Source: a phage. Taken from it: 64,000 nucleotides of DNA. The position numbers were made by a program, and so were the translations under genes. This document shows, piece after piece, positions 4,131-19,824 of the stretch. The notes beneath the pieces were generated by a model that had not been told where the DNA came from, searched no databases, and worked only from the letters and a program-made list of their open reading frames with translations. Every line of letters starts with the position of its first letter. The stretch's first letter is position 1. Location of the stretch: assembly GCA_014161675.1 (NCBI GenBank), contig GCA_014161675.1_4760.1. One strand, given 5' to 3'.

Positions 4131-4669
4131 AGGTCGCGATATAGTACATTATGAAAATGAGAACTTGCATTACCAATATTGTAGATAATAAATTCTTCAT
4201 CCGGCGCTTGCGCTACAAATTGAGTATGAGCAACCGCCACAACCTTAAAAATACGATCCGTGATCTTGTGTTTAATTTCTGCCCCTACTTCCATAGGAAC
4301 ATATTCATTTGTTTCTGTTTCAGTCGCAAAACAGCCATCTTCTTCATAAGCACGAACAAATCGATCGCAATCAGTACGCTTAACAAATTCAAGAGTATAC
4401 AATTCTCGTGAATTGTCGGTATAGACCAATACAGAATTATTATGATAGCGAATCACATACAGGTTATTATCATCGTCAATTACGCAAAAGCTACGGATTC
4501 CTTCGCCTTTACTCCAGCAGATATTAACCACAGTTCCTCTAATAAAAAAACTTTCCTTTAAATTAAAACTAGCCAATGTGCTAGCGTGCATTTTAACAAC
4601 AACACCATCGCCAATTTCCAGTTTACGAAGTTTAACTTCTTTGCTCAGTACACAAAACATCATCATCAT
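4127..4669 (-). CDS. hypothetical protein
   Basis: 180 aa ORF; sigma70-like promoter (TTGACA-16-TATAAT, minus sense) at 4699-4726. Confidence 0.45.
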   Translation of the reverse strand: MMMMFCVLSKEVKLRKLEIGDGVVVKMHASTLASFNLKESFFIRGTVVNICWSKGEGIRSFCVIDDDNNLYVIRYHNNSVLVYTDNSRELYTLEFVKRTDCDRFVRAYEEDGCFATETETNEYVPMEVGAEIKHKITDRIFKVVAVAHTQFVAQAPDEEFIIYNIGNASSHFHNVLYRDL

Positions 4670-4738
4670 GTTGTCCTCTCGTTGTTTTCGATGTGAGCAT
4701 TATACATTAGCTAATCATGTTGTCAACACCCCAAAACG

Positions 4739-4763
4739 AAAAAGCCGACCCTTTCGGATCGGC
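4739..4763 (-). terminator. rho-independent terminator after nrdD
   Basis: minus sense GCCGATCCGAAAGGGTCGGC + UUUUU. Confidence 0.6.
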
Positions 4764-4769
4764 TGAAAT

Positions 4770-6632
4770 TTACATGTGCTTAACGCGGTTTACCATCTCG
4801 GAGTGTTTCCCGTGGTTAAATGGACGCAGATCAACAGATCCAAGATATCCACTAACGCGACGGATAACATTCATCTTTTCCAGATTGTCATTGCCGCAAT
4901 CAGGACAAACAAAACCAGACTCGGTTGCTCTCATTTCCTTAGTAGATCCGCATACATGACATACATCAGAAGGAGTATTAACACCGAAGTAGTGCAATTT
5001 ATCCATTGCATAGTCTACTACAGTTTCAAGACCTTTCAGGTTGTTTTTCATGTCTGGGAACTCAACATAAGAGATCATGCCACCGGACGCCAGCCAGTGA
5101 TAATCTTTCTCAAAGTCGATTTTCTCAAATGGAGTGACTTTCCGGTCTACGTCAAGGTGGAATGAGTTGGTGTACCAGTCTTTATCGGTAGCACCCTTAA
5201 CAATACCAAATTTCTCTCTGTCCAGTCGATTAAATCGATAGCAAAGGCTCTCGGCTGGCGTACCGTAAAGACTAAACCCAAGTCCGGTTTCGTCCTTCCA
5301 TTTTTCAGTATAATGACGCAAGATCTTAAGAATATGTTTACCGTATCGCTGCGCATCTTCCGAATCAAACGGATGAACACCAAACAGGACGCTCAATACC
5401 TCATGTAAACCAATATATCCAAGAGAGATACTAGCGCGACCATCTTTCAACACTTCCAAAATTTCATCGTTTTGATGAATACGGAAAAATGCACCTTCGG
5501 TATACAGTACAGGAGCAACATTGGCTTTAGCCCCTTTTAAAGCGTCTACGCGACTCATAAGCGCATCAAAACAAATAGGCAGACGATTCGCTAGCTCTTG
5601 TTCGAATAGCTCAATTCTGCGCATTACAGACGCTTTACCGGCACGACGCGCGGCAATAAGGGCAATACGCGGAAGATTCAGAGTCACAACACCTAAGTTA
5701 TTACGTCCGTCTAATACTTCTTCGCCTTTCTCATTATGCCACACACCCAGGAAGCTACGACAACCCATCGGGCTAACCGGAACACTAGATCCAGTGATGC
5801 TACGGTTATTCTTCGCAGAGATATAATCAGGGTAAAGACGCTTACTAGAACATTCCAATGCAAGTTGCTTAATGTCGTAGTTCGGATCTTCCGGTTTAAG
5901 GTTTAATCCTTCTTCTAAGAACATCACCAGCTTAGGAAACACCGGAGTGATACCATCTTTACCTAAACCTTTAGTTCGAACGTTCAGGATCGCTTTCTGA
6001 ATCAGTTTTTCTTCCCAGCTAGTACCCATACCAAAGGTTAAAGTCACAAAAGGCGTTTGACCGTTGGTGGAGAACAAAGTGTTGATTTCATATTCCAACG
6101 CTTGATACCCGTCTAAAGTTTCTTTTTCTGTCTTCTCTTGTGCATAGAGAGTATCAGCTTTGATTCCGTAGGTTTCGGCATCAGCAAGGTGTTTATGATA
6201 TGTTTTCTCAACATACGGTGCTAACACCTGATCGATGTTTGCGATTGTGGTCCCGCCATATTGATGACTTGCCACCTGTGCGATAATTTGAGCGGTTACA
6301 GCACAAGCAACGCCGATTGATTTCGGACTTTCGATTTGTGCGCTACCCAATTTAAAACCATTCTCTAACATGTCTTTGAGATTAACAAGACAGCAGTTAG
6401 TAAACGGCATAGCGGGTGCATAATCCATATCATGATAATGAATATCACCGTCTACATGCGCTTTATAGATGTGCTCAGGTAACACGGTTTTAGCAATCTG
6501 TTTAGACACAGCACCAGCAATCAGATCTCGACGTGTCGGGAATGTTCGCGCGTCTTTGTTCGCGTTCTCTTTGCTTACTTCGTTTTCTTTACCCGTTGCG
6601 ATTTCTGTAATGTCTTTGATTAGTTTTTCCAT
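4770..6632 (-). CDS. nrdD: anaerobic ribonucleoside-triphosphate reductase, class III, intron-less
   Basis: 620 aa; FTNCCLV, SPMGCRSF and C-terminal glycyl-radical RRVSGYLG motifs; strong similarity to T4 NrdD. Confidence 0.95.
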   Translation of the reverse strand: MEKLIKDITEIATGKENEVSKENANKDARTFPTRRDLIAGAVSKQIAKTVLPEHIYKAHVDGDIHYHDMDYAPAMPFTNCCLVNLKDMLENGFKLGSAQIESPKSIGVACAVTAQIIAQVASHQYGGTTIANIDQVLAPYVEKTYHKHLADAETYGIKADTLYAQEKTEKETLDGYQALEYEINTLFSTNGQTPFVTLTFGMGTSWEEKLIQKAILNVRTKGLGKDGITPVFPKLVMFLEEGLNLKPEDPNYDIKQLALECSSKRLYPDYISAKNNRSITGSSVPVSPMGCRSFLGVWHNEKGEEVLDGRNNLGVVTLNLPRIALIAARRAGKASVMRRIELFEQELANRLPICFDALMSRVDALKGAKANVAPVLYTEGAFFRIHQNDEILEVLKDGRASISLGYIGLHEVLSVLFGVHPFDSEDAQRYGKHILKILRHYTEKWKDETGLGFSLYGTPAESLCYRFNRLDREKFGIVKGATDKDWYTNSFHLDVDRKVTPFEKIDFEKDYHWLASGGMISYVEFPDMKNNLKGLETVVDYAMDKLHYFGVNTPSDVCHVCGSTKEMRATESGFVCPDCGNDNLEKMNVIRRVSGYLGSVDLRPFNHGKHSEMVNRVKHM

Positions 6633-9876: not shown

Positions 9877-10170
9877 TTAACCATTAATCTTGTTTTTGAC
9901 TACAAAGGATCTGAACTCATCAAAACCACCTATATAATCACCATTATAGAAAATCTGCGGCATGGTGGCAATAACTTCTACCCCTGCGCGATCCTGAATG
10001 TCGGCAATGATAGAATCAATCTTTACCGGACGACCGTTTTCGTCTACACCATCATTAACCGGAATGTAGATGTAAGGGATCTTACGCGATTCACAAAGGC
10101 GCTTTGCATTCTGGCAATACTTACAGTTGTAACCTTCAAAACCAAAAATTTCTACCATGTTATACCTCAA
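9877..10170 (-). CDS. nrdC: thioredoxin/glutaredoxin NrdC
   Basis: 97 aa, CKYC active site, PQIFYNGDYIGGFDE glutaredoxin fold motif. Confidence 0.8.
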   Translation of the reverse strand: MRYNMVEIFGFEGYNCKYCQNAKRLCESRKIPYIYIPVNDGVDENGRPVKIDSIIADIQDRAGVEVIATMPQIFYNGDYIGGFDEFRSFVVKNKING

Positions 10171-13546: not shown

Positions 13547-13853
13547 CAAGTTTTCTCCTATGAGCAATTCGTGCAATCTTCCTTTCATGATTTCGTTGGT
13601 TCTTGTCTTCACAGTTTACCCACTCAACAAGATCTTTACCCAACTCGAAAGCCCATTCTCGGTCTTGCTTTACGTTTTGTAGGTATGGACTTTCTGACAC
13701 TCTACGAAGTGATGTTGTCATAACAAGAATGATCTCAGGAATGGTCGGATGTTCCTTGCCATAAACAATAGGACGCGAGTCACTATCAATACCTTGTAAG
13801 AAGGTGTATCCTGAATCACTTAGAATCATATACTTTTTCATTTCACACATCAC
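13512..13853 (-). CDS. hypothetical protein
   Basis: 113 aa ORF. Confidence 0.4.
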   Translation of the reverse strand: MMCEMKKYMILSDSGYTFLQGIDSDSRPIVYGKEHPTIPEIILVMTTSLRRVSESPYLQNVKQDREWAFELGKDLVEWVNCEDKNQRNHERKIARIAHRRKLDEIKNRILQSM

Positions 13854-14107
13854 AGTTTCCTCAACCAGTTATTAAAGCGAGCAAACCATGACGCTTTTCG
13901 TGCTTCTTTTACTTTATGTGCACGCAAACCACTGAAACACCATTCATAATCATCACTGAAACATGATTCAACAGGAACACCCGCATTTCGTAGTTCTCTG
14001 GTCTTTATCATGAATCCTTGACATAAGGGTCGACCTTCAACAATGATAGGAAGTTTAACTTTTTCCATGAAAGTATACCCAGCACGGTCAATAATTTCAA
14101 TCTTCAT
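13850..14107 (-). CDS. hypothetical protein, tandem paralog A
   Basis: MKIEIIDRAGYTFMEKVKLPIIVEGR... near-identical N-terminus to 14126..14323. Confidence 0.5.
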   Translation of the reverse strand: MKIEIIDRAGYTFMEKVKLPIIVEGRPLCQGFMIKTRELRNAGVPVESCFSDDYEWCFSGLRAHKVKEARKASWFARFNNWLRKL

Positions 14108-14125
14108 AATATAATCCTCAATTAG

Positions 14126-14323
14126 TTATACCGCCCAGGCTTCATTTGCACGAAAACACCATTCATACTCAGGAAAATAACCTTTAATTGGCACGCCAGC
14201 TTTTTGTAGTTCCTGCGTTTCTACAAGATAATCAAGCCCATAACGACGACCTTCCACGATGATAGGAAGTTTAACGCCATTCATGAAAGAAAATCCACCG
14301 TCATCAATAATTTCAATTTTCAT
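14126..14323 (-). CDS. hypothetical protein, tandem paralog B
   Basis: MKIEIIDDGGFSFMNGVKLPIIVEGR... Confidence 0.5.
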   Translation of the reverse strand: MKIEIIDDGGFSFMNGVKLPIIVEGRRYGLDYLVETQELQKAGVPIKGYFPEYEWCFRANEAWAV

Positions 14324-14567
14324 TTACATTATCTCCATAGATCTTTCCAGCAATATCAATTTCACCAGCGCGAACATCTAGGATAAGATGCGGTAGGTGT
14401 ATGCAGTTTTCCCACCCTACGCGCTTCATTTCTGAAACAGTGACGTAAGCCCACCCGTTCGCTGTAATAAAGTCTACTTCAACCTTGAGAGGAAAGCAAG
14501 ACTTTTCTATGTTTTCAAATCCGACAATATGTTTTGTTGTTGAATATGGAATATATCCGGTGATCAT
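14313..14567 (-). CDS. hypothetical protein
   Basis: 84 aa ORF. Confidence 0.4.
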   Translation of the reverse strand: MITGYIPYSTTKHIVGFENIEKSCFPLKVEVDFITANGWAYVTVSEMKRVGWENCIHLPHLILDVRAGEIDIAGKIYGDNVNEN

Positions 14568-14998
14568 TTTGTGATCTCCTTATACTCAACACACCATAAG
14601 CGGGTAGCCCATGATAAACGCTCATAACGCTGGCAGAAATCGGACCATAGATATTGTGTACCGTCTTGCATGGTTGAAATATGCGTTTTCTCTCCAACTT
14701 TCACGAAAGAAGTATTCGATTTTGTGATCTCGACCGGAGTATATCCGAAAGCGGGTTCCAAGCCAACATCTGAACTAAATGCCAATTTAACAGAATTTGT
14801 TTTTCTGACCGCTGTCCGGTTTCCTTCTGGGTATAGCACAGCAGGTTTAGCGCCTAAGCGGATAAACTCAGTATTTTTAATAAACAGAATATCATGATAA
14901 CCGTCATATTCCGACACTTCCATAGTAACAGGAAAATCGACATGTGCTAAACCTGGTAGATCTCGCATATCATGAAATGTAGCCATCAACTTTTTCAT
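14564..14998 (-). CDS. hypothetical protein, C-terminal domain paralogous to 15009..15254
   Basis: ITKSNTSFVKVGEKTHISTM...LSWATRLWCVEYKEITK. Confidence 0.45.
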   Translation of the reverse strand: MKKLMATFHDMRDLPGLAHVDFPVTMEVSEYDGYHDILFIKNTEFIRLGAKPAVLYPEGNRTAVRKTNSVKLAFSSDVGLEPAFGYTPVEITKSNTSFVKVGEKTHISTMQDGTQYLWSDFCQRYERLSWATRLWCVEYKEITK

Positions 14999-15008
14999 CT
15001 TGTATTCC

Positions 15009-15254
15009 TCACTCTTCTGTAATTACTTCATATTCAATTTTCCATACATCAATCGCCCAGCTTAAAAGCTCATACGATTTACAGAAAGATGACCAAATAT
15101 ACTGTTTTCCGTGCATCGTTGTTATGTGTGTATTCTCACCAACTTCAACGAAAGACATATTTGACTTTGTGATAACTATAGGAATGCGGCCGAATGGTGG
15201 CGGTATTACTGATTCGTTGGTCTTCATTCTATATTCCTCACTCTTCTGTTTCAT
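15009..15254 (-). CDS. hypothetical protein, paralog of C-terminal half of 14564..14998
   Basis: ITKSNMSFVEVGENTHITTM...LSWAIDVWKIEYEVITEE. Confidence 0.45.
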   Translation of the reverse strand: MKQKSEEYRMKTNESVIPPPFGRIPIVITKSNMSFVEVGENTHITTMHGKQYIWSSFCKSYELLSWAIDVWKIEYEVITEE

Positions 15255-15736: not shown

Positions 15737-15837
15737 CTTTGATTCTCCTTAGTTGGTATGTGTGCATTATAGCACTATGATTTTCATTGTCAACAACTAA
15801 AAACAAAAAAGGCTACCCCGAAGGATAGCCCATAAAA

Positions 15838-16614
15838 TTACACGCGAGCACCGTAGATCGTGCCTACTTTATCCCAGCGTGGAGCATTACCAGTAACGGC
15901 TTTACCAGCAGCACCACCGTTATATTCTGTACCGTTCCCCTGAGTATTACATCTCCCTCCAGCAGCACCAACGTTACCGCCCGCACCGCCTGTATATGCA
16001 CTAAGAGACCCCTCACCAACAGATCCTTTACCTGGAGCGGAAATGGAGCCAGCGGTTGCACCAGAACTCATATTAGAGGAAGACCCACCAGCACCGAATG
16101 GGCGACCACCGCCGCCACCAAATACTAGTCGACCCCTGTTACCGCCACCACCGCCACCGCCGCCACCAGCGATAGCACCGTTATTTGTAATTCGTAGACG
16201 TGTACCGATAGCGTTATTGATTGCGTTTCCACCAGCAGCGCCAGCAGCGTTACTACCACCATTACCCCCACGTCCGTAGACAGTCACACCTGAGTTAATG
16301 ATCAATGTTACATATTCGTTTGTTAACGAGCTAGGGAAGTCAAGACAAGGAACGCCAGTAGATTGGGAAACAATATTACCCGTGATAGTAATTACTACCG
16401 GAGTAGATCCTTGTGCTTTCATCCAGTTAATAAGAGTGTCTTTATTGTAAGAGTTACTAGCACCAATGCTATAATGAATCTCTTTAGAACGTCCGACCAT
16501 TGCTGACATATACGCCGGACGACCTAAGCGAACAGCTTGCATTGCGGCGCTCATCCACCGTTGACCAGTCTCGGACACAGCAGATGATCCTACCCATCCA
16601 GAAGATATTGCCAT
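15838..16614 (-). CDS. polyglycine-rich protein, gp38-like (T2-type tail-fibre adhesin) candidate
   Basis: 258 aa; globular N-terminal about 120 aa followed by multiple glycine-rich motifs (GGGGGGGGG, GGGGGRPFGAGG) separating variable segments. Confidence 0.45.
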   Translation of the reverse strand: MAISSGWVGSSAVSETGQRWMSAAMQAVRLGRPAYMSAMVGRSKEIHYSIGASNSYNKDTLINWMKAQGSTPVVITITGNIVSQSTGVPCLDFPSSLTNEYVTLIINSGVTVYGRGGNGGSNAAGAAGGNAINNAIGTRLRITNNGAIAGGGGGGGGGNRGRLVFGGGGGRPFGAGGSSSNMSSGATAGSISAPGKGSVGEGSLSAYTGGAGGNVGAAGGRCNTQGNGTEYNGGAAGKAVTGNAPRWDKVGTIYGARV

Positions 16615-16668
16615 AAAATTTCCTCACAAGAAAAGCCCCAATTAAGGGGCATTGATTGATAATATTAC

Positions 16669-16890
16669 TTAGATGATCTCTGCTTCACCATTCAGGAAGA
16701 AAGACCATGTTTTGTTAGGATAGCGAAGCGCCCATGATTCAGCGGTTTTAACACCAGCTTCGAACAATTGACGGCTGGTTACTTTCGCCATACCATCTTC
16801 AATGTCAACGTTTTCAATAATCATCGGGTACTTAGCGCCACGCATGAAACCGAAGCCAGCGGAAGATTTGATAATTTTAACAGTTGCCAT
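16669..16890 (-). CDS. hypothetical protein
   Basis: start at Met (MATVKIIK) behind conserved AGGAGAATCAAAATG leader. Confidence 0.5.
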   Translation of the reverse strand: MATVKIIKSSAGFGFMRGAKYPMIIENVDIEDGMAKVTSRQLFEAGVKTAESWALRYPNKTWSFFLNGEAEII

Positions 16891-16977
16891 TTTGATTCTC
16901 CTAGAAAGTGTATCTCGTTTCGATGTGTGTATTATGCAATAACACCGGAACGCTGTCAACACTTTCTAAGAAAAATT

Positions 16978-19159: not shown

Positions 19160-19227
19160 AAGTCATTCCCCCAGATTAAAAATATTCAGTTATATTTATA
19201 ATCTGGGGCTTTATTTATGATTAACTC

Positions 19228-19824
19228 TTATTTGGTAGTACCGTCAATAAAATGTTTACGGCACACAGAGACATATTTATCCTCTGCACCAACTTCTATT
19301 TGAGCACCATCGCGAATAACATTACCCTCTTTATCTACACGAAGGACCATTGTTGCTTTCTTGCCACAATGACAAATACCCTTCATTTCGACCAGTTTAT
19401 CAGCAAATGCCATTAATGCCGCAGATCCTTCAAATAGATTGCCCTGAAAGTCGGTGCGAAGGCCATAGCACAGTACAGGGATATTTGCATCATCGACAAG
19501 CGCACACAAGCCTAAAACATGCTCTTTAGTCATAAATTGGGCTTCATCTACAAATACAGCATCAGGACGCCATCGATCCGGTCTACGCTTACCTAACGAT
19601 TCACGATAAACCAAATCGAAAAGATCATCCGATTCAGTGAAGGTGATCGCTGGAGCACTTAGGCCAATTCGGGAAACAACTTCACTTTCTGAATCTCGAT
19701 TATCAATCGCTGGCTTAAGAATTAATACTCGCATATCACGTTCGGTATAGTTATAAGCACTTTGTAACAGAGAAGTTGATTTGCCAGCGTTCATAGATGC
19801 ATAGTAGAAATATAGTTGCGCCAT
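19228..19824 (-). CDS. tk: thymidine kinase
   Basis: P-loop MNAGKST, C-terminal zinc motif CHCGKKAT...VCRKH; typical TK1-type. Confidence 0.9.
   Translation of the reverse strand: MAQLYFYYASMNAGKSTSLLQSAYNYTERDMRVLILKPAIDNRDSESEVVSRIGLSAPAITFTESDDLFDLVYRESLGKRRPDRWRPDAVFVDEAQFMTKEHVLGLCALVDDANIPVLCYGLRTDFQGNLFEGSAALMAFADKLVEMKGICHCGKKATMVLRVDKEGNVIRDGAQIEVGAEDKYVSVCRKHFIDGTTK

Follow-up and report, generated by a model that had tools for sequence, protein, structure and literature searches.

Why would a protein built like a phage receptor-binding adhesin be encoded within a run of small early genes? The question is posed by an open reading frame (ORF) in a 64,000-nucleotide stretch of phage DNA (GCA_014161675.1; the whole stretch is called the window below). 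It is one of a series of small ORFs flanked by nrdC (9877-10170) and tk (19228-19824), where all genes are on the minus strand. Usually, gp38 genes adjoin gene 37. A sequence-only reading had likened the encoded protein to T2-type gp38 adhesins and had suggested either a spare or relocated host-range determinant or a different polyglycine protein. The analysis described here leaves little doubt that the ORF is gene 38 (g38) of an RB49-like Krischvirus, and that its product is the single receptor-recognizing adhesin capping each long tail fiber.

The ORF is real and has exactly the coordinates first proposed, but it is on the minus strand (Table 1), with the ATG start codon at 16614-16612 and the TAA stop codon at 15840-15838. 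Both domains of the gp38 family are present at full length in its product. Residues 45-258 match positions 1-218 of the 218-position Pfam profile GP38 (PF05268) with an E value of 1.7e-72 and a score of 244 bits, and residues 1-40 match positions 1-40 of the 40-position profile Gp38_N (PF21721) with an E value of 3.9e-18 and 65.6 bits. Judged against the Pfam cut-off of 25 bits that applies to both domains, the 244-bit sequence match is far above chance. In addition, PHROG 2056 ('tail fiber protein; host specificity') is matched at 9.5e-99, the solved gp38 of phage S16 (6F45_D) aligns over residues 1-256 with an E value of 1.4e-50, and a GFP-gp38 fusion (9V85) matches at 3.7e-35. Together with the RB49 identity given below, these results bear out the T2-type assignment, and homology to gp38 in Pfam, PHROG and 6F45_D rules out a different polyglycine protein.

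Compared with the annotated gene 38 product of RB49, 255 of the 258 residues are identical (99%), the three differences from the GenBank sequence being S4K, S5A and S183G, and the protein from Krischvirus RB49 record OZ035808.1 is 100% identical. Approximately 7 kb around g38 shares 94-97% identity with RB49-like phages of the genus Krischvirus. By these sequence matches, the window is DNA of an RB49-like Krischvirus and the ORF is its gene 38. Among Tevenvirinae-size genomes, gp38 alleles reach up to 91% identity to the protein examined here.

The glycine-rich motifs that had drawn attention to the protein are present, including the run of nine glycines and the GGGGGRPFGAGG motif. Glycine accounts for 33% of residues 115-258, whereas no such enrichment is seen in the first ~113 residues, and it is because of the glycine content that the local G+C content rises to 51-57% from a background of 38-42%. 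Since a single-sequence AlphaFold model reached a pLDDT of only 35.9, the fold assignment is based on homology to the solved structure, and the end-to-end alignment with 6F45_D makes a polyglycine-II sandwich like that of S16 gp38 the candidate fold.

Table 1. Features of the g38 locus, in window coordinates and ordered by position
Feature	Position	Strand	Evidence or remark
Sigma-70-type early promoter of ORF078c homolog	15766..15793	-	TTGACA-16-TATAAT, upstream TG, 12/12 matches
g38 module, 872 bp (leader, hairpin 1, Shine-Dalgarno, g38, hairpin 2)	15797..16668	-	Alignment of filled and empty sites
Hairpin 2, 9-bp stem GGGCTATCC-ttcg-GGGTAGCC plus T-run; predicted terminator after g38	15798..15831	-	Fold energy
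Gene 38, long-tail-fiber tip adhesin (258 aa plus stop)	15838..16614	-	Pfam, PHROG, PDB, RB49 identity
g38 codons 114-258, glycine-rich domain, probable receptor specificity	15841..16275	-	Motif alignment, allele divergence
Codons E230 and Y231, RB49 host-range mutation positions	15922..15927	-	Both residues present here
GGGGGRPFGAGG motif, residues 166-177	16084..16119	-	GGGGGRP invariant in 11/11 aligned gp38
Nine-glycine run, residues 150-158	16141..16167	-	Encoded by imperfect 9-nt tandem repeat
g38 codons 1-113, conserved N-terminal region	16276..16614	-	Gp38_N match, residues 1-40
Shine-Dalgarno GAGGA	16621..16625	-	6 nt 5' of ATG, read from sequence
Hairpin 1 (GCCCC-ttaatt-GGGGC) plus TTTTCTT; predicted terminator or attenuator in g38 leader	16628..16650	-	Centroid fold -11.2 kcal/mol
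CTAAGTA, late-promoter-like heptamer	16666..16672	-	One mismatch to RB49 CTAAATA
Small early ORF upstream, RB49 ORF080c homolog, 73 aa	16669..16890	-	Transcript enters hairpin 1
Sigma-70-type early promoter of ORF080c homolog	16931..16959	-	TTGACA-17-CATAAT, 11/12 matches

The gene number itself can mislead, for gp38 of phage T4 is a tail fiber assembly chaperone that is not an adhesin and is not present in the virion. A protein of this kind might be expected from the product name given to g38 in the RB49 record AY343333, 'distal long tail fiber assembly catalyst', but the same record carries the note 'similar to T2 and RB69 gp38 adhesin', and a BLASTP comparison revealed no similarity to T4 gp38 (best E value of 7.5). 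Because of this dissimilarity, the name is best regarded as a misnomer. Moreover, RB49 gp37, which was used since gene 37 is outside the window, has a Peptidase_S74 domain at residues 871-930 (E = 1.4e-11). A gp37 with its own C-terminal S74 chaperone, and not a T4-type needle tip, belongs to the T2/S16 fiber type, which needs a gp38 cap. Given also that host-range mutations fall in gp38, as described below, a T4-type chaperone is a highly improbable identity for this protein.

If the ORF is an adhesin gene, then it must be asked whether it is the only one in the genome. A spare adhesin, carried in addition to a canonical gp38 and giving the phage two receptor specificities, would be in keeping with the usual placement of gp38 beside gene 37, and two Krischvirus genomes (kvi and G5211) do have g38 there. 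However, inspection of the gene 37 region of RB49 revealed no gp38, and thus no second copy of the kind that the sequence-only reading had suggested looking for; in this genome type, the gene next after gene 37 is a 79-aa ORF (ORF251w/dc5), with the holin gene t behind it. Furthermore, the genomes with g38 beside gene 37 have an empty site near tk. Each of the best 60 of 797 phage records found by tblastn has gp38 in a single place, although 8 of the 797 hold more than one, and back-translated gp38 motifs gave exactly one match in each of 12 gp38-bearing loci. A spare copy is rejected because RB49 lacks a gp38 linked to gene 37 and because of the single place per best-60 record. It is refuted for RB49, Phi1, JSE, GEC-3S and the further genomes compared, and overall its probability is very small.

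On this evidence, g38 is very probably the phage's only gp38 and has been relocated, such that one half of the earlier 'spare or relocated' proposal holds and the other does not. Placement directly 3' of gene 37 is typical of the family without defining it; here the gene is instead unlinked, on the opposite strand and between nrdC and tk, which is the position first described. A displacement of RB49 g38 from the tail fiber genes has already been published (Trojet 2011, PMC3157838; Desplats 2002, as cited by Trojet 2011).

Most T-even-like coliphages depend chiefly on gp38 for their host range, and its correct annotation therefore matters for phage therapy and receptor prediction. In published work on RB49, mutants that had acquired a new host differed in gp38 by E230K alone or by E230K together with Y231S (Golomidova 2022, PMC9569957). 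The reported receptors of the RB49 fiber are OmpA and some O antigens (PMC9569957), and OmpA was also assigned to RB49 in genome-wide screens in 2026 (bioRxiv 10.64898/2026.04.02.716166). The structure of the S16 proteins in the literature indicates a complex of gp37 and gp38 in a ratio of 3:1.

These observations can be combined into a working model for the fiber tip. First, gp37 would trimerize, assisted by the S74 intramolecular chaperone at its C-terminus, and the chaperone would then cleave itself off. One gp38 monomer would dock on the exposed gp37 tip via N-terminal residues 1 to ~113, and by analogy with the S16 gp37-gp38 complex codons 1-113 are likely to encode this attachment region. 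The invariant glycine motifs within residues 114-258 would form a rigid polyglycine-II scaffold that displays variable loops distally, and these loops would bind the receptor at the distal end. Host range might then shift either through point mutations or through recombination, in which the variable segments that separate the conserved glycine motifs are exchanged.

The pattern of variation among gp38 sequences is compatible with such a division of labor. In a protein alignment of 11 sequences, G114-R115-G116-G117, G150-155, G166-170-R-P, G209-213 and G233-237 are invariant or nearly so, and G157 is invariant as well. Between these motifs lie variable segments with insertions and deletions, at about residues 159-165, 178-190, 199-208 and 221-232. 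When the nucleotide sequences of seven Krischvirus alleles at the tk locus are compared, identity is 90-100% across the flanks, the leader and both ends of g38 (its initial 330 nt and final 87 nt), whereas nucleotides 331-690 show only 57-67% identity between alleles, with indels, against 93-100% in the regions flanking them. Codons 1-113 are 94-98% identical in nucleotide sequence among the Krischvirus alleles at this locus. This is the classic mosaic of gp38 genes.

The first half of the protein is less well conserved in phages whose gp37 ends in another tip. Relative to the protein examined here, gp38 of kvi and T6 are 57% identical over residues 1-44 and 33-41% identical over residues 45-113, and the tip of kvi gp37 is unrelated to that of RB49. 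The kvi protein (positions 4213-4989 of locus L010) is itself chimeric, with an N-terminal region like that of T6 (41-57%) and a specificity domain like that of RB49 (82%). From its sequence, kvi gp38 looks like the result of a clean domain swap between two gene positions. This chimera suggests that the attachment region changes along with the tip of gp37, and that the specificity domain is swapped freely wherever the gene happens to be.

The immediate surroundings of g38 are organized differently from those of its small neighbors. In the direction of transcription, the order is a sigma-70 promoter, the ORF080c homolog, a 54-nt leader, g38, hairpin 2 with a T-run, a second sigma-70 promoter and the ORF078c homolog. 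As had been noticed from the sequence, a terminator hairpin precedes the gene, consisting of GCCCCttaattGGGGC followed by TTTTCTT. It is situated between the upstream ORF and g38 and is retained in seven alleles. Hairpin 2 (15831..15810) is stronger than hairpin 1, with a fold energy of -14.7 kcal/mol and a z-score of -3.3, and both terminators were predicted in RB49 with TransTerm confidence values of 90 for hairpin 1 and 100 for hairpin 2 (Nolan et al. 2006). Comparable GC-rich stem-loops also precede g38 in kvi and IME339, where it has its canonical place after g37, and on this account the hairpin appears to be a general feature of g38 leaders. The gene was also said to lack the early leader of its neighbors, and this is indeed the case: no sigma-70 promoter is present in the 54-nt leader, whereas the promoters of both neighbors are near-perfect. 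The promoter of the ORF080c homolog is the nearest one upstream on the g38 strand, and that of the ORF078c homolog marks the 3' boundary of the g38 module.

How a virion protein might be expressed from this position is less easily answered. In RB49, late genes 34, 36, 37 and t have a TAAATA core 30-38 nt 5' of the ATG, often as CTAAATA. Such CTAAATA sites occur in the RB49 sequence L002 at 13676-13682 (g37) and at 16932-16938 (t), and the latter shares nucleotides with the stop codon before it. Scanning for the T4 consensus alone would miss the RB49 g37 and t promoters, because these have CTAAATA and not TATAAATA. No T4 late promoter TATAAATA was detected near g38 and no exact TAAATA core upstream of it, but the leader has a one-mismatch version, CTAAGTA, that is invariant in seven Krischvirus alleles. 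This heptamer overlaps the stop codon of the ORF080c homolog, 51 nt 5' of the g38 ATG and upstream of hairpin 1, and a comparison of the RB49 g37 upstream element ttCTAAATAatattat with the g38 leader atCTAAGTAatattat reveals a single mismatch. Although CTAAGTA may be regarded as a putative late promoter element, no late promoter was predicted at this site in RB49 (Nolan 2006). The only late promoter predicted nearby on the g38 strand, Pl:48756 of RB49 (Nolan 2006), corresponds to window positions 19193-19200 on the minus strand and is approximately 2.6 kb upstream of g38, with two predicted terminators in between. This site, between tk and rI, is an exact T4-type late promoter, TATAAATA.

A search of the RB49 transcriptome literature yielded nothing relevant on g38 transcripts. 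On the early strand and without a promoter of its own, g38 most likely has a low level of transcription, for which two routes can be proposed. The first would begin at the early ORF080c promoter and proceed by read-through of hairpin 1, which has a weak stem of 5 bp, and a second would use the near-consensus late element CTAAGTA. A low output would suit a protein of which only six copies are needed per virion, and the hairpin plausibly keeps the output of gp38 below that of gp37.

The same features could be taken to mean that the protein is not a fiber component at all. An early gp38 derivative with a non-virion role, for example the blocking of OmpA for superinfection exclusion, would have reason to be encoded among early genes, 3' of a sigma-70 promoter and without a canonical late promoter. 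Yet this is the genome's only gp38, while its gp37 is of the type that requires an adhesin. Its N-terminal part has kept an intact attachment region, which varies in step with the tip of gp37, the host-range mutants of RB49 map to gp38, and the N-terminal sequence does not resemble a signal peptide. A dedicated non-virion function is accordingly given almost no weight. None of the observations speaks against the identity of the protein or its role as an adhesin, and it continues to be regarded here as the fiber-tip adhesin.

Comparison with genomes that have g38 elsewhere defines the boundaries of the module. In kvi and G37-3 the module is missing from this junction, and the ORF080c and ORF078c homologs are adjacent. 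The empty site in these phages is a canonical PeSL, composed of a stop codon, TTGACA, a CGGGG...CCCCG stem-loop, TATAAT and a Shine-Dalgarno sequence, with the stop codon followed directly by TTGTTGACA. The 872-bp insertion separates the stop codon from the -35 box, with no other sequence between them at the empty site. An intact PeSL at the empty tk site can be seen at positions 2829-2893 of locus L007. An apparent 1.2-kb insertion at the locus in PHB13 and FL37 was also considered, but it is probably the join of a nearby paralogous piece, as PHB13 is colinear with the window over 7 kb.

Krischvirus genomes have three interchangeable fiber-tip configurations, one of which is without any gp38. 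In the first, the RB49 type represented by the window, g38 is at the tk locus. In the second, found in kvi and G5211, the order is g37, g38, ORF251w and t, and the tk site is empty; g38 occupies positions 4213-4992 of locus L010 in kvi and 4265-5002 of locus L011 in G5211. In the third, found in G37-3, g37 is followed by three tandem paralogs of ~100 aa, and scans for two invariant gp38 motifs, which recovered 12 of 12 positive controls, located no gp38 anywhere in the G37-3 genome. A difference in the position of g38 within the genus was partly noted in 2025 for the FL isolates (PMC12032242).

The tandem paralogs of vB_EcoM_G37-3 (MK327941.1, 157810-158716; L008 11811-12717) have in common W..FDIPNGW and, at the C-terminus, an F/Y-K/R-F motif, and they had no match in Pfam or PHROG. 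The three-paralog module was present in 3 of 50,697 phage records (G37-3, G2248 and UPWr_E1) and is a candidate alternative fiber-tip module. Phage KFS-EC (NC_055757.1) keeps gp38 at the tk locus along with a g37 3' end like that of G37-3, and it has a 107-aa ORF (L018 3594-3917) before the ORF251w homolog and the holin gene. KFS-EC may be a fourth fiber-tip variant.

A bolder reading is that g38 travels as a promoterless, hairpin-bracketed module, entering and leaving Krischvirus genomes by PeSL recombination or via mini-circles, and that the adhesin is made from an early sigma-70 promoter by attenuated read-through of hairpin 1 and not as a late gene. This proposal is a tentative one and is, in its entirety, rather unlikely to be correct. 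If it were true, early read-through would uncouple both the timing and the inheritance of g38 from those of gene 37.

Other ORFs in the region also bear signs of duplication. The small early minus-strand ORFs at 13850-14107, 14126-14323 and 16669-16890, the last of which is immediately upstream of g38, share the N-terminal pattern MKIEIID..G..FM..VKLPIIVEG / MATVKIIKSSAGFGFMRGAKYPMIIEN and appear to be paralogs. Likewise, the adjacent minus-strand ORFs at 14564-14998 and 15009-15254 share the C-terminal pattern TKSN.SFV.VGE.THI.TM...QY.WS.FC..YE.LSWA, which suggests a tandem duplication in this hyperplastic region. At the 14564-15254 site the ORF of RB49 is shorter, and this is probably the reason for an indel in the megablast matches.

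The location, function and receptors of g38 are all already known, and its unusual position was described between 2002 and 2011. The additions made here are modest and incremental, namely the exact boundaries of the module, the comparison with the empty site, and the question of how the gene is transcribed.

Several known systems provide points of reference for this locus. Gene 38 of RB49, Phi1 and JSE is essentially the same gene, with 98-100% amino acid identity, the same ORF080c-ORF078c locus and the same flanking hairpins. The gp38 of S16 (6F45 chain D; Dunne et al. 2018) likewise combines an N-terminal attachment region with glycine motifs, and its partner, S16 gp37, has an S74 chaperone as does RB49 gp37. 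The two gp38 proteins are 49% identical overall and 46% identical in the specificity domain, and their receptors differ; S16 g38 is also unlike the gene described here in that it directly follows g37, before the holin gene. The gp38 proteins of T2 and T6 (Riede 1987; Tetart 1998; Trojet 2011, PMC3157838) have the same architecture of glycine motifs and hypervariable segments and are recombinational mosaics as well. The glycine motifs are shared in the alignments to T6 and S16 gp38, a comparison that the sequence-only reading had recommended. However, T6 g38 adjoins g37 on the late strand, and its product is 33-57% identical to the present gp38 in the N-terminal region. By contrast, T4 gp38 is unrelated in sequence and shares only the gene number and the historical product name. 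Finally, the g38 module resembles the PeSL cassettes of RB49 and Phi1 (Arbiol et al. 2010) in its location in a hyperplastic region, its GC-rich stem-loops, and its presence or absence at a PeSL junction. It differs from a PeSL with its ORFan in having the stem-loop without a sigma-70 promoter of its own, and whereas the PeSL cassettes of RB49 and Phi1 carry an ORFan, the g38 module carries an essential virion gene.
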